Source: an uncultured virus (IMG/VR IMGVR_UViG_3300035498_000413) (Duplodnaviria > Heunggongvirae > Uroviricota > Caudoviricetes). Taken from it: DNA of 20,000 nt. The position numbers and the translations under genes were made by a program. Numbering within the stretch: position 1 is the stretch's first letter; each line of letters opens with the position of its first letter. The stretch is taken from positions 56,611 to 76,610 of the IMG/VR virus record IMGVR_UViG_3300035498_000413; one strand, written 5' to 3'. The notes beneath the pieces are model-generated. The model ran no database searches and was not told the DNA's origin. It saw only the letters and a list, made by a program, of their open reading frames with translations. Shown here in pieces: positions 2,462 to 11,872 of the stretch.

Positions 2462-3934
2462 TTATCGAATCATGTCATACTTCTTTAAAGTTTCAAACAT
2501 CAGTTCTTTACCAGTCTTGCCGGTAAGAATAGAATCCAAAATGACCGGGGAGTAACCACTTACAAAAGAAACACCGTTCTTAGGAGCCTCAGGAATAAGG
2601 TTATGTCTAGCATTGACATTCCAATATACAAGATTAGGCATCTTGTATCCATATTCTTCCCATTTGTTTCTAATAGTCTCCATACCAGAGTAAAGGCCCT
2701 CTAAGCTTCTGTAGTTCGTCATACTATCAAATTCCATATCAGAGATAATGATAATATTCTCAGGAAGTTCAGACTGCGGGAGCTGATGCTTTAAGGCGGT
2801 ATTGAGCAGTAGATTAAATACAGCTTCAATATTAGTGTTATCGCAGAGCATATTATCATAGATATTAATTACCTGACTACAGAAATCTTGTCCAGTAATC
2901 TCTACTAGTTCAGGTCGGCTAGAAAAAGAAATATAATGGTTATAGAAAGGACTCCCAGGATTACACTTTCCAGCGCAATACAAACCTAACGAGATTGCAA
3001 CTTCGATCGGGCGTCCGTACATACTACCAGAAGTATCTACCACTGCAATACCATTGAATTTTGCGCCCTTAAAATAGTCGGTAAGATTTCCCCAATACTT
3101 GTTATATATTGCTCTATCTTCTAAGTCAGTATAGTGCATATCATAATAGCTCTTACCCATAACCTTATGCACTACATCAGCAGGATACAGAGTTCCAGCA
3201 TGGACTTTAGTATTCTTAGACTGAATAAATTCCTGATATCGCTCAGAAGTTTCCTTATTCTTCAAAAAAGCTTTAGAATACTTCAAACCAGCCTTAGAAG
3301 GAACAGCCGAGAAATCAATCTCATCCCATCTCTTATCACTCATAAGACGCTCAAGAACGTTAGAATAATTCCGCAATTCTGACAGAGTCTTACGATACAG
3401 CTTGGGAGTCATATGAAGATATTCTCGAATCTTCTTAGCCTTTCTTCGAGTTTCTTGACTAGAAGTATTTTCACTAGGAAGCCATTTAGCAAGAAGGCTA
3501 ATAGAATCTTCCTTAAGAGCGTTCTTAATATCCATCGCAAGCTGTTCTGCGATAAATTGCATAACCTCAGCTTCAACCGGAGTATCAAACAGCTCGAATA
3601 AATCGTCCCATCTACCAAACTCAGGAATATATCCAAGATTCCGCAGAACTGCATCAGGGTCATAATTAGCCAACCACTTCAAACAAACTCGGAAAAAGGC
3701 TCTTTCGCCCTGGCCTCCGCGCGCATCACGCAAGTAAAACAAGCACTTCAAAGCAAAAGTAGGATTCTCTCGATAAGCAGAAGCAAAAAGTGCAATCGTA
3801 TCTTCTTTACTACGCTCTCTATATGCGCCACCAAGGCTAAAGAGATCGAACACTCGATCTGCAGTAGTAGAATAACTCACGCCGCCATTTTCAGTATAAG
3901 TCTTAGATGCTTCAATCTTTAATTCATTTAACAT
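2462..3934 (-). CDS. DUF2828-family TROVE/Ro60-like + vWA protein
   Basis: Motifs TENG, RDARGGQGER, GRWDDL, AKWLP, vWA MIDAS VVDTSGSM, SDMEFD and VYWN. The start is moved to ATG 3934 (MLNELK) because of an AAGGAG RBS and because the longer ORF overlaps the promoter. Confidence 0.85.
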   Translation of the reverse strand: MLNELKIEASKTYTENGGVSYSTTADRVFDLFSLGGAYRERSKEDTIALFASAYRENPTFALKCLFYLRDARGGQGERAFFRVCLKWLANYDPDAVLRNLGYIPEFGRWDDLFELFDTPVEAEVMQFIAEQLAMDIKNALKEDSISLLAKWLPSENTSSQETRRKAKKIREYLHMTPKLYRKTLSELRNYSNVLERLMSDKRWDEIDFSAVPSKAGLKYSKAFLKNKETSERYQEFIQSKNTKVHAGTLYPADVVHKVMGKSYYDMHYTDLEDRAIYNKYWGNLTDYFKGAKFNGIAVVDTSGSMYGRPIEVAISLGLYCAGKCNPGSPFYNHYISFSSRPELVEITGQDFCSQVINIYDNMLCDNTNIEAVFNLLLNTALKHQLPQSELPENIIIISDMEFDSMTNYRSLEGLYSGMETIRNKWEEYGYKMPNLVYWNVNARHNLIPEAPKNGVSFVSGYSPVILDSILTGKTGKELMFETLKKYDMIR

Positions 3935-4000
3935 ATAAAATCTCCTTTTTGCTGACTTTTCTTTTTTCAAGAAAAGTATCTCTCTTAACTTTCTATATAC

Positions 4001-4029
4001 ATTATACAATTTTTATAATAAAATTTCAA
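4001..4029 (-). promoter_or_regulatory. sigmaA-type promoter
   Basis: TTGAAA-17 bp-TATAAT followed by GTATATAGAAAGTT. Confidence 0.75.
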
Positions 4030-4556
4030 GTAATTTCTTTTCTAAAATAAGTATAAACGCATCGACATGAAGGATGATAAGGAGGAATTTCTTTTATTTC
4101 AGAGACAGGGACTGGAGGTCCGTCAAACGTATCGGCGCAATAACCGCAACAATCCTCGGCATGAAGAATTTCGCCATACATATCAGGAATATCCTTAAAT
4201 AAGTTATAAGCAATTCTATTCACAATAGTATAACACTCATTATCAAGAATCAAAAGACAATGATATAGAGCTAGATTGCGGTCGCCGCAGTTCAGCCACT
4301 CCCGCACTCGAGATTCAAAGGTTTCCATATCATCATAGGTTACTGAAAATACAGCTATGTCGCCGGGGACTTCAATCTCGTATTCTGTAGTAATATATTT
4401 TATACACATAGCTAATACTTTTTCAAAAGAATCGTAGTATTCGTCGAACAATTCTTCACCTTTTCCTTCTGTTTTAAAATATCGAAGGACTGCTTTAGCT
4501 ATTGTGTTCTCTTGTTTTAAGAGATATTTCTCTATTTGTTCAATTAATTCTTTCAT
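4026..4556 (-). CDS. protein with SPP1 gp7/Mu gpF-like Zn-binding C-terminal motif
   Basis: CCGYC...PPYHPSCRC matches the C..C...PPxHPxCRC motif of MuF-type head morphogenesis proteins; short (176 aa). Confidence 0.55.
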   Translation of the reverse strand: MKELIEQIEKYLLKQENTIAKAVLRYFKTEGKGEELFDEYYDSFEKVLAMCIKYITTEYEIEVPGDIAVFSVTYDDMETFESRVREWLNCGDRNLALYHCLLILDNECYTIVNRIAYNLFKDIPDMYGEILHAEDCCGYCADTFDGPPVPVSEIKEIPPYHPSCRCVYTYFRKEIT

Positions 4557-4562
4557 TACTTT

Positions 4563-5153
4563 TCACGAACTGCTAGATGTTTGGCTACAATCTGTAGTAC
4601 AGGTATTTCCGCTTTTACACTTGGAGCTTGTTGTATTACCTGATTTACATAAGTTACAGCCTTTACAGCTATCACAAGTATTGCAACCAGTATTGCAAAC
4701 AGTACACTGATTTTTTTCATAAGTTAAATCATTAGCTTTATTGGCTAAATCTTCAAAATAAGAGCCATAAATATAAGTTTTTCCTGCTGTTGCTCTTTTG
4801 GAGCTTCCCACTAATGCAGCATAATTATTAAACCAAGATGCTTTAACTTCTTTATCAGTTTGTGTTGTAATTCCGCTGGTACTCTTGCCCCCAATACCTT
4901 TAGATCTTAAAGCTTTAACATATGCAGGAAGCCTATTCCAATCGGTAAGTTTAATTAATTCACTTCCAGCAGTTACCCCGCCATTCCATGCAAACTTATT
5001 AGAGCAATCGATACTATAAACTTCTTGAACTTTACAATACGTTTGTGCATCATCACAGGTTGTACAATTACCATTGTCACAATTATTACAACTATCATTA
5101 CAAGTATTGCAGCCATCGCAGTCTTGACAGCTAACACAAGTTTCACAACTCAT
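4563..5153 (-). CDS. Cys-rich (Cxx)n protein, candidate radical SAM substrate
   Basis: Start ATG 5153 (MSCETCVSCQDC) with AAGGAG RBS; 196 aa; 22 Cys in two terminal clusters; overlaps the rSAM stop codon. Confidence 0.75.
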   Translation of the reverse strand: MSCETCVSCQDCDGCNTCNDSCNNCDNGNCTTCDDAQTYCKVQEVYSIDCSNKFAWNGGVTAGSELIKLTDWNRLPAYVKALRSKGIGGKSTSGITTQTDKEVKASWFNNYAALVGSSKRATAGKTYIYGSYFEDLANKANDLTYEKNQCTVCNTGCNTCDSCKGCNLCKSGNTTSSKCKSGNTCTTDCSQTSSSS

Positions 5154-6798
5154 TTTTCTTCTCCTTTCTACAATAATTTTTATAATGACATTCATTATCT
5201 AAATAATCTTTAAAAACTAAGTTATTTTCTTCTACTAAACATTTCATCATATTAACAGCGTGTTTAAACAAAATTTGGTTCCACCTACAAGCTACTTCTG
5301 GATTGATAAAGAAATCTTCATAAGTATCATAGTTAGAAGAAGGACAACCATTGGTCTGGCACACCTGCCGTAAGGGGCAAGTTTTGCAGAGTTCAGGCTT
5401 CTCACACTCATTTATTGCTTCTTTTGTATATTCATCTAACAAAGCTTCATGCTTTTTTCTATCTACGCCATTCCAAATATCACCGATAAAGAAGAAACTA
5501 TTTCCATAAGAATCTTGCTCTTGACAAGCATAAATTCTACCATCATAAGAAATAGAAGCAGAAGTAGTACCAAGGCCGCATCTAAAAGGCTCGCGATGAA
5601 TAGAAACATTATTAAATCTATTATGATAGAACTGTAAATCTCTATTTAATATATCTTCATAAGTTTTATCAATACGAGAGAAAGAAGTAAAAGGTTTATG
5701 ACCCTCAGAAAACTGTAGATACATCAACGCAAAAATCTTCTCTACTTCTTCATCAAGTTTTTGAATATTTTCTTCTGACCAAGTTTCTCTACCATTAGGC
5801 ATTGTAAAGAAATTGCGGAAACCGTGCTCCATAGCGAAAACATACGAGTTAAAAGTGCCATCAACTGTAGCTTGGTCAATGGTTGCTCTCATAGTGGTGT
5901 TTGGAAAATTCTGTAATAAATAGGAAATATTGGAAGCCGCCGCCTCATAACTACTTTGCCCATTCCGCATTGGACGATTTTTATCTTGAACTTCTTTAGG
6001 ACCATCGAAAGAAAGATGGGGATAGATATCATACTTCCGCATAAAATCAATTCTTTCCTTGTCTAGCAGCGTCCCATTAGTGGTCATTGTAAGAGTAATA
6101 GTATCTCCATATTTCTCTCTAATATGCTTAGTCAGCGGCACAATAATACTATCCCACATTATAGTAGGTTCACCGCCAAAGTAAGTAATAGAAGGATCTT
6201 GCTTAATTCCAGTTAATTCTTCCTTTTGTTTAACATTATTCATTAAAAAATCAACGCTTTGTTCTGCAATTTCGTAAGTCATATAGTGGTTACATTGCTT
6301 AACAAAGCAGTTATGAACAGCAAAACCATCTGCAAAATAAGTATGTTCACTAGTCTCAAAATTATAAACCTGCGTAGTTTCAAAAATTTCTTCGACAGAT
6401 TCAATTATAGAACTATATAGCCCTATATCTCCAAATATGTAAGCCACATCGATCCCAGGCTTTAAATCTTTTACCTGGGTCCATTTATTTACTCCAGTTA
6501 AGATAGGATGATTTCCTGTAAGATAAATTTTATGTTTATCCTTCGTAACAATTTTAAATAAAGTTCTAGCTTCTCTTACAAAAATATTAAGAACTTTAGT
6601 TGTTTTTACTCTATGGGGAGCTTCTTCTTCAAACCCCATAACTCTATCAGCGATTTCAATATCTTCAATATTTTTCGTGCTACCATCAGCCATTAAGATC
6701 TTAGTGCCGGCTGGTGCGCAATACTTGCATTCTAGGTTACACGCGTCAGTGAGGTTCAAACACACGCTACTAAAAAACGGGTAATGTTCTTTATACAT
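5143..6798 (-). CDS. radical SAM/SPASM enzyme containing a mini-intein
   Basis: CNLECKY[intein]CF gives CxxxCxxC; also FGGEP, TTNGTLL, SFDG; SPASM region CGLG...DGRIYAC...IGDI...CKTCPLRQVCQTNGC...C. Confidence 0.92.
   Translation of the reverse strand: MYKEHYPFFSSVCLNLTDACNLECKYCAPAGTKILMADGSTKNIEDIEIADRVMGFEEEAPHRVKTTKVLNIFVREARTLFKIVTKDKHKIYLTGNHPILTGVNKWTQVKDLKPGIDVAYIFGDIGLYSSIIESVEEIFETTQVYNFETSEHTYFADGFAVHNCFVKQCNHYMTYEIAEQSVDFLMNNVKQKEELTGIKQDPSITYFGGEPTIMWDSIIVPLTKHIREKYGDTITLTMTTNGTLLDKERIDFMRKYDIYPHLSFDGPKEVQDKNRPMRNGQSSYEAAASNISYLLQNFPNTTMRATIDQATVDGTFNSYVFAMEHGFRNFFTMPNGRETWSEENIQKLDEEVEKIFALMYLQFSEGHKPFTSFSRIDKTYEDILNRDLQFYHNRFNNVSIHREPFRCGLGTTSASISYDGRIYACQEQDSYGNSFFFIGDIWNGVDRKKHEALLDEYTKEAINECEKPELCKTCPLRQVCQTNGCPSSNYDTYEDFFINPEVACRWNQILFKHAVNMMKCLVEENNLVFKDYLDNECHYKNYCRKEKKNEL
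6310..6720 (-). mobile_element. mini-intein (137 aa, no homing endonuclease)
   Basis: Block A CAPAGTKILMADG, block B LTGNHPIL, block F VYNFET, block G HTYFADGFAVHN followed by Cys+1. Confidence 0.92.
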
Positions 6799-6810
6799 AA
6801 TTTCTCCTAT

Positions 6811-6840
6811 AAAAAATAAAGGGAGGTTTCCCTCCCTTTT
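6811..6840 (-). terminator. intrinsic terminator after the suppressor tRNA (possibly bidirectional)
   Basis: AAAGGGAGG-GAAA-CCTCCCTTT hairpin with T tracts on both strands. Confidence 0.8.
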
Positions 6841-6844
6841 AGTC

Positions 6845-6919
6845 TGGCAGAGGCGCTTCAGAATCGAACCAAGACCCGAGGGGTTAGAGCCCTCTGTGCT
6901 ACCATTACACTACACCTCC
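6845..6919 (-). tRNA. amber suppressor tRNA, anticodon CUA (probably Gln-charged)
   Basis: GGAGGTG TA GTGT AATGGTA GCAC A GAGGG CT[CTA]AC CCCTC GGGT CTTGG TTCGATT CTGAAG CGCCTCT G CCA. G73; 1-nt bulge in the T stem. Confidence 0.9.
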
Positions 6920-7020
6920 ATATGTAAGATAGCTTATTTAGTCTTTAGGTTCTTTCTACATTATTTTCTACATTTAATTTTTCCGATTCTTTTCTCTATT
7001 GCTATCTAATTTATATAATT

Positions 7021-7072
7021 GATAAGATTTGTTAAAACATCATCGCCACGAGAAGGCTCTTATCTTGATGAC
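7021..7072 (-). ncRNA. minimal HDV-like (theta) self-cleaving ribozyme
   Basis: P1 GTCATC/GATGAT with a G-U wobble at G1, P2 GATAAGA/TCTTATC, P3 GCC/GGC, L3 TTCTCGT, J4/2 ...TAACAAA. G1 lies 2 nt after the tRNA-Ser discriminator. Confidence 0.85.
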
Positions 7073-7073
7073 G

Positions 7074-7159
7074 CGGAGCGAGAGGGATTCGAACCCCCGT
7101 GTCTCGTAGACACGCTAGTTTTCAAGACTAGGCTGTTATGACCGCTTCAGTACCGCTCC
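7074..7159 (-). tRNA. tRNA-Ser(UGA), no encoded CCA
   Basis: Cloverleaf with CTAGT CT[TGA]AA ACTAG, long variable arm and G73; followed by CGT rather than CCA. Confidence 0.93.
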
Positions 7160-7162
7160 GTT

Positions 7163-7236
7163 TGGAGGTAGATGCCTGAATCGAACAGGCAACAAGATAT
7201 TACAAGTATCTCGTTTTACCATTAAACTAATCTACC
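7163..7236 (-). tRNA. tRNA-Thr(UGU)
   Basis: GGTAGAT...AGATA CT[TGT]AA TATCT...TTCGATT...ATCTACC T CCA. Confidence 0.92.
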
Positions 7237-7359
7237 ATAAAGAGCCCAGGCTACGTTCCACAGCTCGATGGAGGATTTGGGTTCCTCGTTAACCAACCCT
7301 TTTTCAAACACCCATAAAAGTAAACCTTGTTGTAGCTTCGTTCCCTTAACTACAATAAT

Positions 7360-7388
7360 ATTATATGATATTTTTTTTGAAATTTCAA
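7360..7388 (-). promoter_or_regulatory. sigmaA-type promoter driving the Thr-Ser-ribozyme-suppressor tRNA unit
   Basis: TTGAAA-17 bp-TATAAT. Confidence 0.78.
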
Positions 7389-7420
7389 AGATTTTTGTAA
7401 AAAAGATCCTTAAATCTAAA

Positions 7421-7450
7421 GAAAAAAGGGGACTCATAAACGAGTCCCCT
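7421..7450 (-). terminator. intrinsic terminator ending the structural cassette
   Basis: AGGGGACTC-GTTTAT-GAGTCCCCT followed by TTTTT; 4 nt after the TGA of the recoded gene. Confidence 0.85.
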
Positions 7451-7454
7451 AATA

Positions 7455-8639
7455 TCAAAAATCAAACCATGTAACACTATCTAAAGCAGAAGCTACGTCA
7501 TCCAAAGTGGTATTTTTCCCCAATAAATGATATTGAGAACTATAGATAAAGTAAGCTATATCTCCAGCGTTTATTACACCAGCTTTAATAGCTGCTCCGT
7601 TATAGTAAATACTTTTTGCGGTTTTAGAATTAATGCTTAAAGTAGCATTTGCAGGTACATCATAAGTAAATTTAACAGCAACGATGCCTCCAGTAGTTAA
7701 AGAATAGCTACTTAAAGAAGCTGTTTTGGCAGTAGTAGCTGCCGCTGTTGAGCACGTTACATATCCCTATCCCAGTGAAGCATTAGAGTAAGTAGAATTT
7801 GCATCACCAGTAGCCCACCAACCAGTATAAGTAGTTCCATTAATATTTACTCCAGAACGATAGGTTAATGTAACAAGATAATTGGCCCCATAATGCGTAG
7901 TTAATCTTGAAGTTGCCCATCTATAACAATCAATAGCGCCTGTAGTAGTACCATCGTCGAGAGTTAAATTTAAAGTAACATTAGTACTACTCACAGAAGC
8001 ATAAGGAAGCCAATAATTAATACAAAGTCCATCATATAATGCTTTGACACCATGTAAATTACCAGTCCAATCTGCGGTAGAAGCTGTCTGAGTGCCCATT
8101 ACAAAGCGATTATCAGTTAGATTGATAGTAACATTAGAAGAACCATCAAAAGAAGCAGAGCCCGACTCATCGCCGTCCACAGTTATTGTGCGGGCAGTGG
8201 TTAATTTAGGTACTGAGTCTATAGAAGCCCAAGTCGCGTCTCCACGTAAGAACTTAGATTGGCTACCTGCGGAAGGCTAGGGCACTAAACCCCTTGTACC
8301 TGCCGTGCTCGCACTTGCGCCAGTAAATGTATCAACATTATTCTAAACCACAGTCCAGTCTGTTGCTTTATAGGAAGAACTATACGCAGAAACACAAATA
8401 ATCATGTCTCCTGATTCTATACTTCCTATATTTGTTATACTAAAAGAGGCAGAGGCTTTGTAAGTCCAACCAACTTTATAATCCGTTAATCCTGTAATAT
8501 CGGCAGCACTTGAGACTGTACCCTTAAAGATAAGTCCTGATGCGAGGGTCGTCTCAATAATGTCAAGACGATCCCTCGCAGCAGTATCTTTTAGAGTGTA
8601 AGTGGTGCTGCCTACTTTAATATTAGCTAAATCTGCCAC
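7455..8639 (-). CDS. tail-fibre-like protein, 394 aa when TAG=Gln (3 internal TAG)
   Basis: Joins ORFs 8343..8639 and 7767..8180 plus an unlisted C-terminus in one frame, through TAGs at 8343-45, 8277-79 and 7767-69 (DWTVV*NN, GLVP*PSAGSQSKFLRGDATW, SNASLG*GYVTCSTAAAT). Ends at TGA right before the terminator. Confidence 0.88.
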
Positions 8640-8661
8640 TTACTTCACACCGTCCTTTTAA

Positions 8662-9861
8662 TTAGGAAACAGTAACAGTCTTTGTACTCTTTGTCAGAGT
8701 GGGAGTAATAGTATCTGCTGTACCCTTAAATGTACTAGAAACATCAGTAGCTTTAGTATAACTACCACTTACACTGACGTCACCTTCAGAACCACTAAAT
8801 GTAGCAGAAATTGTATTAGTATTCCCTGCGAAAGTGGCAGAATATTTATTACCGGTAAAGGTAGGAGCGGTAGCAGTAGCTGATTCAATACCAGTAACCA
8901 CAGTAATGCCGCTATCAAGAGAAGGTAGAGTACCAGCAGAAAATGTACCATCAGTGAAAGAACCAGCTTTAAAGCCAGTAGAAGTCACAGCGGCACTAGT
9001 AGAAGCAGTACCTAAAGTCAGAGTTTCACCACTCACAGTAGCAGTCACGCCAGAAGTAGCAAAATTACTAGTAGATTCAGATACGCTAGGAGCGGTATAA
9101 GAAGCCGCTGTATAAGAAGGAAGAGTACCCACAGAAGAAATATGCTTTACGGTAGTAGTAGAAGGAGTCACAGTAATTGTAGGAGCTGATACAGTGCCAC
9201 CAAGAGTAACGCCATTAGTATTATCAACAGAGAGTGTCACTTTACCAGAAGGAGTCACGCTACCAGATACCGAACCTTCAGGAGTAAATTTACCAGAAGA
9301 ACTCACAGTACTAGATTCAGTAGAAAGAGTGGTGGAAACAGTACCAGCAGGAGTATAAGAAGCGCCATTGATACCAGTAGTAACTTCAACAGTGCCAGAA
9401 GCTGAATCCTTATAAGCAAGAGCCTTTAAGCCAAGCGCAGATTGTAAAGAAGCTACGCTGATGTCAGCGTCGAGAGCGATATTAGCGATCTTACGGGTCT
9501 TAGGGACATATGCGCCTTCATCACCAAGTTCAGTAAATGCACCATCATAAAAAAGATACTCTTTAGTACCAACAATGATGACATCGCCACTCTCATATGT
9601 AGAAACATCAGTGGGCAACTCATCAAGCTTGCCTTTAAAATGCAGAACACCTGTTAAACCAGCAATAGCAGACTGAACTTGAGCACCTGTGACAAGACCA
9701 TTCTCGCCTTCAGCAACACCGCTAGTAGAAACATCCTTTAAAGAAGCATTACCCAGAGTGTCTAAAATACTACGTGCATCAGCGTCTTTTAATAAATAAG
9801 TAACGCCGCCTAGCTCAATTTGGCTTAGCACAGAGCCAGCAGTATATTCAAAAATTGACAT
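8662..9861 (-). CDS. Ser/Thr/Gly-rich virion fibre/decoration protein
   Basis: YLLKDADAR N-terminal motif, LHFKG module, TPxGxVS and APTFTG beta-type repeats; no TAG in frame. Confidence 0.75.
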   Translation of the reverse strand: MSIFEYTAGSVLSQIELGGVTYLLKDADARSILDTLGNASLKDVSTSGVAEGENGLVTGAQVQSAIAGLTGVLHFKGKLDELPTDVSTYESGDVIIVGTKEYLFYDGAFTELGDEGAYVPKTRKIANIALDADISVASLQSALGLKALAYKDSASGTVEVTTGINGASYTPAGTVSTTLSTESSTVSSSGKFTPEGSVSGSVTPSGKVTLSVDNTNGVTLGGTVSAPTITVTPSTTTVKHISSVGTLPSYTAASYTAPSVSESTSNFATSGVTATVSGETLTLGTASTSAAVTSTGFKAGSFTDGTFSAGTLPSLDSGITVVTGIESATATAPTFTGNKYSATFAGNTNTISATFSGSEGDVSVSGSYTKATDVSSTFKGTADTITPTLTKSTKTVTVS

Positions 9862-9883
9862 AAATTAAAAATCTCCTTATTTT

Positions 9884-10246
9884 TTATTTATAAAAACGAA
9901 TAAGCTCTTGAGAGTTATTCACTTCTACGCTAAATTTATTCTCTAATTCATCGGTAATAACTTTCTAACTTATCGCTCCATCTGTATTAGTTCCTAAACT
10001 TTGATAAAGTTTCATAATACCCGCGGAATCCTCAGATGCCTAGAGGTATGAAAGCTAGATCCATGGAGTAATACCATCACCGATTTTTATTTGTAGACCA
10101 TCTTTAGCGGTATCTACAAAACAAATTTGTCCATTATCAGGGACATAGGTATCTTCATAATTAAAATAATTATCTCTTTTTGAACCCTTATCTTTCATAA
10201 GAGTCCATAGTATACTTACGCCTGATTGGTCTAGGAATTTAGACAC
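9884..10246 (-). CDS. virion structural/fibre-associated protein, 120 aa when TAG=Gln (3 internal TAG)
   Basis: Extends ORF 10055..10246 through TAGs at 10055-57, 10040-42 and 9965-67: KIGDGITPWI*LSYL*ASEDSAGIMKLYQSLGTNTDGAIS*KVITDELENK...RFYK-TAA. This fills the gap to the next RBS. Confidence 0.85.
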
Positions 10247-10264
10247 TTAATTGTCCTCCTTCCC

Positions 10265-11017
10265 TTATACGCAAATAGTTTTAATTTCATCCTCGGTTAA
10301 GGCTTCAGGAATAACAGCCTCGATATCTTTCTTAACTGCTACTTCATGCTCAGGATCATCAGCAACATAATTACCAGAAGCTTTATCTTCTGCATTGTGA
10401 TAGAACATACCTTTTTGATACACGTTTAAACGTGAACCGATCCAGTCGCCATTAACCTCTTTATCAGCATAAATTTGAGCAACCATGCCATTGGCGCCAC
10501 CATCATTTACTCCAACGAAAGATTCAGTACCATCAGTATGAATAAATTTAGCGCCACCGCCAGAAGTTTCATTCCAAACAAGCGACTCGCCATTCACGTC
10601 TTTAATGCTCTAAGTAGTTTTATTATCAAGATCAGACTTAGTAGCATAATTACTCAGATCAATAGAGCCAGCAAGTTTATCCCAAGAATCTCCAGTCCAA
10701 ACAACATTATCACCAGGATTAATACCATTATCTGCGTCTGCATTTATGACATTATAAACGTCTCCAATAGCTGCATCAGCAGGTAATTCAGAATAATTAT
10801 CAATACTACCCTTATAAGTAAATACTCTAGTTACGTCTGTAGTAACTTCTGCAATAGCTTCTTGAAGTTTATCTTCTGTGACATAATCACTTAAGATTTC
10901 AACTAATTCAGAGCTAGTTTTATAGTTAGTTAAAGCTTCAGAAATAGCGTCTGCATTATAGCCCTTAATTTGCGCCCATAATGTAACTAAACCAGCTTGG
11001 TCAAGAACTTTTACCAT
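10265..11017 (-). CDS. virion structural/fibre-associated protein, 250 aa when TAG=Gln (1 internal TAG)
   Basis: ORFs 10610..11017 and 10265..10597 are in the same frame and joined by TAG 10610-12 (DNKTT*SIKDVNGE). Contains an FTYKGS...GDVYNV...WDKLAG module. Confidence 0.85.
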
Positions 11018-11033
11018 TTGATAACCTCCCCTT

Positions 11034-11378
11034 TTAATTTAATATTGAAAGAATTTCCTTTTCAGTTAAAGGAATATTCTTGTCAACCCATTCAAGATTT
11101 CCGTCGCTCCCTTTAGAAGGGATTTGACCGGCGGTCGCTGCACTAAAACCGTATAATTCTATGGCATCGCCGTATAAAGTCAAACTTTTATTATCAATAG
11201 AAATGGATGCTTCTCCCTCGAAGTATTTTAAATCATTCCAAGCAGTAGTGCCATCTCCAATTTTAAGTTTGCCTGTATCTTTTTCATATCCAGGCTCGCC
11301 AGATTCAAGTATTGGATTTAATCGAATCCATGTATTTGCAGAACCACGCTTAAATTTAATTATTGTTGTTTCAGCCAA
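11034..11378 (-). CDS. Mtd_N/hyaluronidase-N-like fibre anchor domain protein
   Basis: IKFKRG...W...NPILESGEPGYEKDTGKLKIGDGTTAWNDLKY is the characteristic motif; TTG start with GAGGAG RBS. Confidence 0.8.
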   Translation of the reverse strand: MAETTIIKFKRGSANTWIRLNPILESGEPGYEKDTGKLKIGDGTTAWNDLKYFEGEASISIDNKSLTLYGDAIELYGFSAATAGQIPSKGSDGNLEWVDKNIPLTEKEILSILN

Positions 11379-11401
11379 ACCTTTTCCACTCCTCTATAAT
11401 T

Positions 11402-11704
11402 TTAGTCTAAGTCGCCACCATCATAGAGATTGTTTTCACCTGAAGAAGAAAAGTTATCATCTAAATCTCCGCCATCATAAGAATTATTTTCGCCTGAAGA
11501 TGAACTTTCATTTCCAGTCGTACTCTACAAAATCCATATTTTTGAACCATTTAAAATATAAACATTAGAGTTTTCAATCACAAAAGCTTTAGAACCAACT
11601 CCACAATCAGTAGGCAAATCAGCTACATCACTTTGATAATCGCATAAGAACTCAGCCATATTATAGAAAGTCTTGCGAATATTATTTGTACTAGCTGTAA
11701 TCAT
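11402..11704 (-). CDS. small putative structural protein, 100 aa when TAG=Gln (1 internal TAG)
   Basis: ATG 11704 with GGGGAG RBS. Reading through TAG 11525-27 adds an acidic tail with two copies of SSSGENNxYDGGDLD, ending at TAA just before the next RBS. Confidence 0.8.
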
Positions 11705-11793
11705 ATGCAAGTCTCCCCTTTTCAATACTATCTCATAGTATTCTAAAAAATTAAAACTATGAATTATATATTTTTGTCCAGGGTTTTGAGCAT

Positions 11794-11827
11794 AAAAGAA
11801 AGGCTTCCCTCGTAAGAAGGAAGCCTT
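11794..11827 (-). terminator. intrinsic terminator ending the large tRNA array
   Basis: AAGGCTTCC...GGAAGCCTT stem followed by TCTTTT. Confidence 0.75.
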
Positions 11828-11831
11828 AAAA

Positions 11832-11872
11832 CTAGATACTACAATCACCAGAAAGTTTGCTGTTGGTATCTA
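11832..11872 (-). ncRNA. ACAGCAA stem element copy 1 (unknown small RNA)
   Basis: TAGATAC-CA-ACAGCAA-loop-GTATCTAG, 3 nt after the tRNA-Ser(GCU) CCA. Confidence 0.6.

Follow-up and report, generated by a model that had tools for sequence, protein, structure and literature searches.

What does a bacteriophage do with a radical S-adenosylmethionine (rSAM) enzyme whose gene runs straight into that of a protein laddered with cysteine at both ends? This question is raised by a 20,000-nucleotide (nt) stretch of DNA (the window; coordinates are positions in it unless a locus is named) that lies inside a 76.6-kb IMG/VR record of an uncultured Caudoviricetes virus (IMGVR_UViG_3300035498_000413). An initial annotation, made from the sequence alone, had proposed that a SPASM-type rSAM enzyme, coupled to a Cys-rich protein and a MuF-like protein, may modify a virion protein. 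We found that the enzyme and the Cys-rich protein, called the Cys-ladder protein here, are a conserved pair, and we see about equal chances for and against the enzyme equipping a virion-associated protein with many thioether cross-links. Action of the enzyme on the Cys-ladder protein is something we infer, together with the thioether chemistry, the acceptor residue and the virion location. The minus strand carries every gene of the window, and the pair is laid out on it as follows.

5143–6798, minus strand: SPASM-type rSAM gene, encoding a precursor of 551 amino acids (aa), about 414 aa once spliced; stop codon TGA at 5143–5145.

6721–6798, minus strand: rSAM N-extein, residues 1–26, holding C20 and C24, the first two Cys of CxxxCxxC (from the sequence and the alignment with the intein-less allele).

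6310–6720, minus strand: mini-intein of 137 aa, rSAM residues 27–163, without a homing-endonuclease domain.

5146–6309, minus strand: rSAM C-extein, residues 164–551, with the third cluster Cys, the rSAM core, the SPASM domain and a C-terminal extension.

4563–5153, minus strand: Cys-ladder protein of 196 aa; start codon ATG at 5153, stop codon TGA at 4563–4565.

5004–5147, minus strand: N-terminal Cys array, residues 3–50 (196-aa numbering), 12 Cys, mostly CxxC.

4707–5003, minus strand: Cys-free conserved core, residues 51–149, with the motifs TDWNRL, ASWFN and IYGSYFEDL.

4587–4706, minus strand: C-terminal Cys array, residues 150–189, 10 Cys.

The Cys-ladder open reading frame (ORF) spans 4563–5195 (210 aa), and its likeliest start is the ATG at 5153, which has an AAAGGAG Shine–Dalgarno sequence upstream and gives 196 aa. 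The start of this gene overlaps the end of the rSAM gene by 11 nt and its stop lies 6 nt from the ATG of the MuF-like gene, all on one strand, so that the close packing of the three genes described initially was borne out. Tail-fibre genes lie upstream of the pair on the same strand.

The pairing recurs well beyond this virus. With a profile of 25 rSAMs we took the best 80 of 104 IMG/VR loci, each with 3 kb on either side of the rSAM (L numbers below), and counted as a partner any same-strand downstream ORF with at least six CxxC/CxxxC motifs or a match to the hidden Markov model (HMM) of the Cys-ladder family. Where the rSAM was at least 31% identical, a partner lay directly downstream in 51 of 53 assessable loci, and the synteny check that the initial annotation had suggested thus came out in favour of the pair. 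Left out of the 53 was L065, where the contig ends; the two misses, L077 and L078, are partial rSAM matches with no partner. The family HMM matched the same-strand downstream ORF in 23 of the 80 loci, and loci with at least six motifs downstream, at any rSAM identity, held 34 distinct partner sequences. Even below 31% identity, strong arrays stood beside the rSAM in 13 of 26 loci (3 downstream, 10 upstream). With TAG read as Gln, phage Phass-1 (GenBank OQ749652; L002) has the rSAM followed directly by a 174-aa family member, an unannotated ORF, and the same order recurs in its relative L017 and in L015/L016 (rSAMs 30–43% identical). L015/L016, with an rSAM 43% identical, form a third lineage with the same gene pair.

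The deposited Phass-1 annotation holds no gene for the 174-aa Cys-ladder protein (L002 5997–6521, 3 in-frame TAG codons), and a second rSAM upstream (L002 3785–4816, 10 in-frame TAG codons) is covered by short annotated fragments at most. Two different tandem rSAM genes stand beside the Cys-ladder protein in L054, L057/L058, L093 and L002/L017, which hints at a second modification step or a second type of target. In L057/L058 and L093, apparent long insertions within the rSAM match, considered as possible inteins, proved to be these second, tandem rSAM genes.

The enzyme itself belongs to the radical SAM superfamily (PF04055), with a Pfam Radical_SAM match of 54.3 bits (cutoff 29.5), a Fer4_12 match of 27.7 bits and a CxxxCxxC motif. 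In this motif, C20-x3-C24-x2-C, the last Cys is the one directly after the intein; the intein-less allele has the motif in one piece, and it does not vary across 25 homologues. The hallmark of SPASM enzymes is a pattern of seven C-terminal Cys that serves two auxiliary [4Fe-4S] clusters. The Pfam SPASM model stayed below its cutoff (17.8 versus 21.5 bits); seven Cys in the C-terminal half are invariant in 25 homologues (C270, C288, C334, C337, C343, C348 and C367, with G283-x4-C288; numbering of the intein-less allele), which at the sequence level is the SPASM pattern. The SPASM-rSAM identity given initially is supported by these invariant Cys, and the nearest curated family is the thioether-forming PapB. 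PapB (NF047865) was the top NCBIfam model for the window rSAM at 172 bits, with 189 bits for the intein-free allele and 186–203 for three other phage relatives, in alignments spanning nearly the whole 330-position model. It was the best model for all four scanned rSAMs of the clade, followed by the SCIFF, QhpD and CcpM thioether-maturase models. These scores lie under the curated PapB cutoff of 340 bits and do not make the enzymes members of that family; the CXXX-repeat maturase model TIGR04115 (69.3 bits; intein-free allele 87.8; cutoff 350) and the CrpC-type model TIGR04463 (40.4 bits; intein-free allele 52.1; cutoff 525) also fell short. Homologues of the rSAM numbered 372 at E ≤ 1e-10, mostly of about 415 aa, the longest contigs being 129–200 kb, and none of the 120 listed among them carried a functional name.

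The closest solved structure is CteB (PDB 5wgg, E = 3.8e-23), in which chain residues 97–437 align with query residues 10–369. Because CteB aligns from residue 97 only, the phage enzyme lacks an N-terminal leader-binding part; the approximately 96 N-terminal residues of CteB are those that we take to hold its RRE, the recognition element for RiPPs (peptides made on the ribosome and modified after translation).

These profile matches also bear on whether the Cys-ladder protein undergoes a different SPASM reaction, namely conversion of Cys to formylglycine (the reaction of anaerobic sulfatase maturases, anSME), sactionine formation (sulfur to alpha-carbon) or carbon–carbon linkage. That all curated cutoffs are missed speaks for such a reading; moreover, models of anSME and of cyclophane-forming and sactipeptide maturases match the rSAM at 60–97 bits, and anSME structures are among its PDB matches. 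However, the top-scoring models are non-alpha thioether formers, with PapB first and SCIFF/CteB and QhpD among the next, CteB is far ahead in the PDB (85 bits versus 39 for anSME), and a conserved pairing of Cys with Asn, Asp, Gln or Glu suits a scheme of Cys donor and side-chain acceptor. We regard these other chemistries as improbable, and as the least probable of the alternatives weighed here.

That pairing is a property of the Cys-ladder family. In the numbering of the 210-aa ORF, the window protein has 12 Cys at residues 17–64, 10 at residues 164–203 and none between, exactly as first counted; read from the likeliest start it begins MSCETC, with the first Cys at residue 3. The ORF holds 15 CxxC/CxxxC motifs and encodes the only array protein of the 76.6-kb record, where the runner-up of 400 ORFs (60 aa or longer) holds 6, in 468 aa. 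A word-based search found three relatives only, whereas with exhaustive profile searching the number of representatives rose to 143 at E ≤ 1e-3 and 58 at E ≤ 1e-10, mostly of about 200 aa and matched over their full length. Back-translated pattern searches found nothing beyond the window's own lineage (1 and 0 loci in viral contigs, 0 in metagenome and 0 in genome contigs), and tblastn of three family members against GenBank phages returned Phass-1 only. The architecture is conserved in the family: Cys arrays at the N and C termini enclose a Cys-free core that bears W-N, F-N and IYGSYF motifs. The initial annotation had noted LTDWNRL, KASWFNN and YGSYFEDL in the core as repeats; the motifs are indeed there, as conserved motifs of the family rather than as internal repeats, with W72, F108-N109 and Y129-G130-S131-Y132-F133 invariant or nearly so.

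Across 145 family proteins (mean 21 Cys in 205 aa), the step from one Cys to the next is 3 residues in 1,258 cases and 4 residues in 743. Asn, Asp, Gln or Glu follows the Cys in 76% of the 1,258 CxxC units, compared with about 25% of residues overall, and the second residue after Cys is Ser, Thr or Gly in 55%. A potential acceptor therefore lies at +1 and +4 of each Cys. Judged from this pattern and the enzyme's relatives, the chemistry would most likely be PapB/CrpC-like, with thioethers from Cys to adjacent Asn, Asp, Gln or Glu side chains.

An AlphaFold2 model (47-row alignment) gave a mainly helical core, with a predicted local distance difference test score (pLDDT) of 76–94 per 10-residue block over residues 51–150 and below 50 for residues 1–37 and 154–195, that is, for most of both arrays. 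Foldseek found no solved structure matching this model in the PDB at E ≤ 1e-3; the best hit of a wide VIA-align search (Z = 5.5, a BARA domain) was within the noise range of that tool, and the best of a BFVD fold search (probability 0.85, uncharacterized 'Myoviridae sp.' proteins) was unconvincing. The predicted helical core backs the initial view of a substrate with a folded core, as opposed to a leader–core peptide.

Arrays of this kind could instead be metal or iron–sulfur ladders, for example in an oligomeric fibre, the rSAM being unrelated or the protein serving as a cluster or electron donor. CxxC and CxxxC repeats have the classic spacing of zinc and iron–sulfur ligands, pLDDT below 50 is expected where folding needs a cofactor or a partner, and only 12 of the 22 Cys of the window protein stand next to Asn, Asp, Gln or Glu. 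Metal binding as a final function is also weighed by the authors of the CrpA study (PMC13692751). Metal binding alone, however, leaves unexplained both the adjacent PapB-like SPASM maturase in 51 of 53 loci and the 76% bias after Cys. In addition, the arrays vary between partners in length and in period (3, 4 or more residues), which favours a tolerant enzyme over a fixed coordination geometry. The two ideas are compatible in that leftover Cys could bind metal; as the whole explanation, we find metal ladders unlikely.

Thioether stapling of a virion component, the reading we prefer, draws on the partners of homologous enzymes in other phages. In L031, L048 and L062 the partner has a 'Hoc-like head decoration' match (phrog_10993, E = 1.2e-84 to 6.8e-101) behind an N-terminal array, and in L035, L047 and L061 it has fn3 domains, joined in L035 and L061 by matches to tail-protein PHROGs. 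The family core aligns with a domain at the C terminus of the L035 partner (hhalign 88.5%, E = 2.7e-6), and because this FN3-bearing partner shares it, the core is a recurrent companion of arrays. In L028 a family member (hhalign 95.4%, E = 1.7e-8) carries a C-terminal Peptidase_S74 domain in the same ORF (35 bits, cutoff 22). Peptidase_S74, the 'chaperone of endosialidase', is a mark of trimeric tail fibres and spikes. Sequences read by eye add a tail-fibre-like protein with a terminal CxxxC array beside the rSAM of L048, long tail-tip-like proteins ending in (CxxC)n arrays in L069 and L072, and a second protein that is almost wholly array in L069, L070, L075 and L076. The proposal of a virion-protein target thereby gained partial support, in that the partners of homologous rSAMs in other phages are of virion type (Hoc-like, FN3, tail-fibre-like, S74); the window protein itself has no Pfam match, Peptidase_S74 included.

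The partners range up to extreme Cys contents: a 739-aa protein with 151 Cys in GCT-x repeats (L083 214–2430), a 369-aa protein with 81 Cys (L081 4186–5292) and a nearly pure (CxxC)n protein of 277 aa, also with 81 Cys (L069 1728–2558). Partners with N-terminal arrays (L029, L035, L053 and L061; L031, L033 and L048–L051) have short conserved leader-like starts before the first Cys, for example ...DELI.IP.FL... or MALKEDDIKDLG..., of a kind that is seen nowhere in the window's own family.

Should the product instead be RiPP-like, it would be an antibacterial or signalling protein, or an array-derived peptide, released at lysis, and the core would be a large domain acting as leader or for recognition. 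Released peptides are the normal products of PapB-like and SCIFF-like maturases, a conserved core flanked by length-variable arrays resembles leader and core peptides, and the roughly 200-aa family matches no virion family. The same gene string also holds an HslV-family (proteasome-type) peptidase gene, at 614–1213 on the minus strand, five genes downstream (phrog_1040, E = 7.5e-14). Other findings speak against release. In the window, as in the two other lineages examined in detail, no gene for an exporter, a leader peptidase or immunity was found close to the pair, and the protein has arrays at both ends, which in other phages occur joined to domains of the Hoc-like, FN3, tail-fibre-like and S74 kinds. 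The HslV-like peptidase, for its part, has no relative in the 80 loci, whose reach is 3 kb to either side of the rSAM. In the same three lineages we saw no transporter or peptidase family next to the pair, and in the window no leader, in line with the initial statement that the operon has no leader or transporter. Nor does the window look like a canonical RiPP cluster, with Cys from residue 3, the rSAM motif at residue 20 and CteB aligned only from residue 97. We consider a released product quite unlikely.

Two further lines of evidence concern the phage and the history of the gene. The phage is large and of gut type, and it decodes TAG as an amino acid. A suppressor tRNA gene, which sets the translational context, sits next to the pair, in an array of 11 tRNA genes:

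6845–6919, minus strand: suppressor tRNA with anticodon CTA (ARAGORN), 46 nt upstream of the rSAM start.

With TAG taken as Gln, the tail-fibre fragments at 7455–11848 (minus strand) merge, giving ORFs of 394, 250, 148 and 120 aa. No TAG occurs in the window's rSAM, Cys-rich, MuF-like and DUF2828 genes. In relatives, both genes of the module contain such codons (6 and 10 in L028, 9 and 10 in L030, 8 and 3 in L026, 9 and 5 in L052), and a study of recoded phages places these codons mainly in late genes (PMC10607447).

Compared with L010, the window is 92–100% identical in nucleotides in the flanks and 67–84% in the Cys-ladder gene; the Cys-ladder protein is 76.5% identical, four neighbours are 97.8–99% identical, and all 22 Cys are kept. 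Small indels relative to L010 shift the Cys spacing in the C-terminal array. The synonymous divergence (dS) of the Cys-ladder gene is 1.01, compared with 0.16–0.25 for three neighbours, and its ratio of non-synonymous to synonymous divergence (dN/dS) is 0.16, compared with 0.04–0.06. We rejected positive selection as the main cause of this divergence hotspot, given the dN/dS of 0.16 and a dS 4–6 times that of the neighbours. Because dS is raised to this extent at low dN/dS, the pattern points to exchange of a diverged allele; it looks like the allele exchange that is usual for surface or host-interaction genes.

Several observations weigh against an enzyme that staples a virion protein, beyond the metal-like spacing and the 12 of 22 Cys already mentioned. 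The rSAM lies under every curated NCBIfam cutoff, so the reaction type is an extrapolation, and about half of the family's candidate acceptors are amides, whereas the known acceptors of PapB are Asp and Glu. The roughly 200-aa family has no match in Pfam, PHROG or NCBIfam (E < 0.01 for the NCBIfam search with the window protein), virion families included; a Pfam scan of 32 of the longer family members gave no domain, and fused forms of at least 425 aa were not found at E ≤ 1e-5, which is weak evidence. Only one of the loci shows the S74 fusion. Since the window pair has no TAG codon, it is the relatives that carry the late-gene argument. Finally, in five GenBank phage loci with rSAMs 24–27% identical, there was no family-HMM match within 4 kb, in a scan for that family and not for generic Cys arrays.

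The rSAM gene of the window is itself interrupted. Cys27 and Asn163 are the end residues of the intein (CAPAG...AVHN), the next residue is a Cys (VHN/C), and this +1 residue supplies the third ligand in the CxxxCxxC motif of the radical SAM cluster. Residues 22–115 give Hint-type Pfam matches (Hom_end_hint 34.0 bits, cutoff 32.1; Intein_splicing and Hint below cutoff), and PDB matches include the splicing domain of PI-SceI (E = 1.1e-5) and a DnaB mini-intein (E = 7e-4). L010 and L011 (IMG/VR) encode a 412-aa rSAM with exteins 97.8% identical from which exactly the 137 intein residues are absent (junction CNLECKY/CFVKQC). The element thus combines an N-terminal Cys, a His-Asn end, a +1 Cys, a Hint match and precise absence from an orthologue, and the mini-intein implied when the enzyme was first described as spliced is real, by the Hint match and the intein-free allele. 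It is polymorphic, being present in the window and L001 and absent from L010 (rSAM 4923–6158) and L011. Since near-identical alleles lack it, we conclude that the intein is real and recently mobile. An intein that splits the catalytic cluster motif could also gate the enzyme in this phage, an idea that, taken jointly with virion modification, we would back only tentatively, at rather less than an even chance.

Directly downstream of the pair lies the third gene named in the initial annotation:

4026–4556, minus strand: MuF-C-like protein of 176 aa, ending ...PPYHPSCRCVY..., adjacent to the Cys-ladder gene.

This protein matched phrog_4728 'head morphogenesis' (E = 5.1e-4 over 57 residues) and had no Pfam match at E < 0.01; 21 of its 30 nearest Atlas clusters are in the PF04233-carrying set. 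Its place in the system did not survive comparison: relatives occur in 3 of the 80 loci, all of the window's own lineage, and in the two other lineages examined in detail the pair is succeeded by different genes, namely those for an SLH-domain protein and Thg1 in L015 and for topoisomerase subunits in Phass-type genomes. The L015 protein (5933–8266 in this 158-kb relative, next after the pair) has 778 aa, an apparent signal peptide and SLH domains (78 bits), and is therefore a hint of a host with an S-layer-type cell wall. Further downstream in the window, 2462–4009 on the minus strand encodes a protein of the DUF2828/DUF7788 kind that includes a vWA-like part (phrog_850 'RNA-binding protein', E = 4.5e-117). 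A DUF2828 gene lies within 3 kb of the pair in 7 of the 80 loci, from at least five lineages; its recurrence may be plain synteny among related phages.

Taken as a mechanism, thioether stapling would begin with the enzyme precursor splicing out its mini-intein, which would restore the CxxxCxxC loop for the SAM-cleaving [4Fe-4S] cluster. The enzyme, having no RRE or other leader-binding domain, would then engage the 196-aa protein, probably through the conserved helical core, and travel both Cys arrays. At each step the 5'-deoxyadenosyl radical would take a hydrogen from a side-chain carbon of the Asn, Asp, Gln or Glu that follows a Cys, and a neighbouring Cys thiolate would bond to that carbon in a ranthionine-type thioether. 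The product would carry small thioether rings laddered at both ends around a folded core, resistant to reduction and proteolysis. Judging by the partners in other phages, this product would most likely belong to the virion of an anaerobe-infecting phage, as a fibre-like or decoration component, and would not be a secreted peptide. More broadly, many phages of anaerobes may apply RiPP-type radical SAM chemistry to their own particles, with a dedicated PapB-like enzyme that turns ladders of Cys-(Asn/Asp/Gln/Glu) into thioether-stapled segments, be it on fibres, on proteins decorating the head or on small accessory proteins like that of the window, a generalization that we find plausible but would not quite call probable; such segments might be linked even between chains.

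If this held for fibres and decoration proteins, it would add a new covalent virion chemistry to HK97-type chainmail and disulfides, a class of virion post-translational modification so far undescribed. It would also explain an unnamed phage rSAM gene family and offer, from nature, a large collection of cross-linking enzymes that are tolerant and take substrates of protein size. A full-text search that leaves most subscription journals outside found no paper linking phage rSAM enzymes with Cys-repeat virion proteins, and the word 'radical' is absent from the Phass-1 paper. Enzymatic thioether stapling is known from small secreted peptides, and on a whole protein only very recently (CrpA, 2026).

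How far do known systems resemble the pair? The NCBIfam CXXX-repeat system (TIGR04115, TIGR04114, PF27846) is likewise a bioinformatically defined rSAM with a Cys-repeat target. One phage partner, in L071, comes near the TIGR04114 cutoff (19.1 versus 20), and a weak Atlas lead (score 0.86) points to a cluster with PF27846 in 23% of its members. However, the phage rSAMs score 69–96 bits against a TIGR04115 cutoff of 350, the phage period is mostly 3, the family has a conserved non-repeat core, and the window Cys protein has no match to the TIGR04114 repeat model. CteB, the SCIFF maturase (PDB 5wgg and 5why), is the nearest solved structure to the phage rSAM, yet the phage enzyme lacks the approximately 96 N-terminal CteB residues, and SCIFF peptides have about 45 aa and six Cys.

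QhpD, from the maturation of quinohemoprotein amine dehydrogenase, is also a SPASM rSAM, one that acts on an assembly subunit, and its model TIGR03906 matches the phage rSAMs at 107–134 bits, below the cutoff of 453. It makes three links, uses an RRE and a leader, and yields an enzyme subunit rather than a repeat array. In the CrpA paper (PMC13692751), QhpD is described as forming Cys-Asp and Cys-Glu thioethers on QhpC, a protein subunit kept in a larger assembly. PapB and its substrate PapA (freyrasin) are closer in that PapB is the best curated model for the phage rSAMs and is a SPASM enzyme working on tandem motifs of Cys plus an acidic residue. The PapB report (PMC9413430) describes Cys-X3-Asp/Glu thioethers and acceptance of Cys-Xn-Asp spacings with n = 0–6, in-line and nested. 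Unlike PapA, the phage-encoded target has no leader and is a 196-aa protein in which arrays flank a folded core on both sides; its period is 3–4 residues instead of Cys-X3-Asp/Glu units, and half of the candidate acceptors are Asn or Gln.

The final comparison is with CrpC of Methanococcus voltae (TIGR04463) and its substrate CrpA. In that archaeal, chromosomal system (PMC13692751) an RRE is present in CrpC, and CrpA begins with a leader-like stretch of 47 residues and has a repeat of 17 residues; the word 'phage' is absent from the main text of the paper. As in the phage pair, a SPASM rSAM is encoded beside a whole Cys-rich protein, and the product's function is given as unknown. CrpC is reported there to install ranthionine links on CrpA, a Cys-rich protein of 28.8 kDa, at C-X-X-Q/D motifs; a whole Cys-rich protein is therefore possible as the substrate of such an enzyme.

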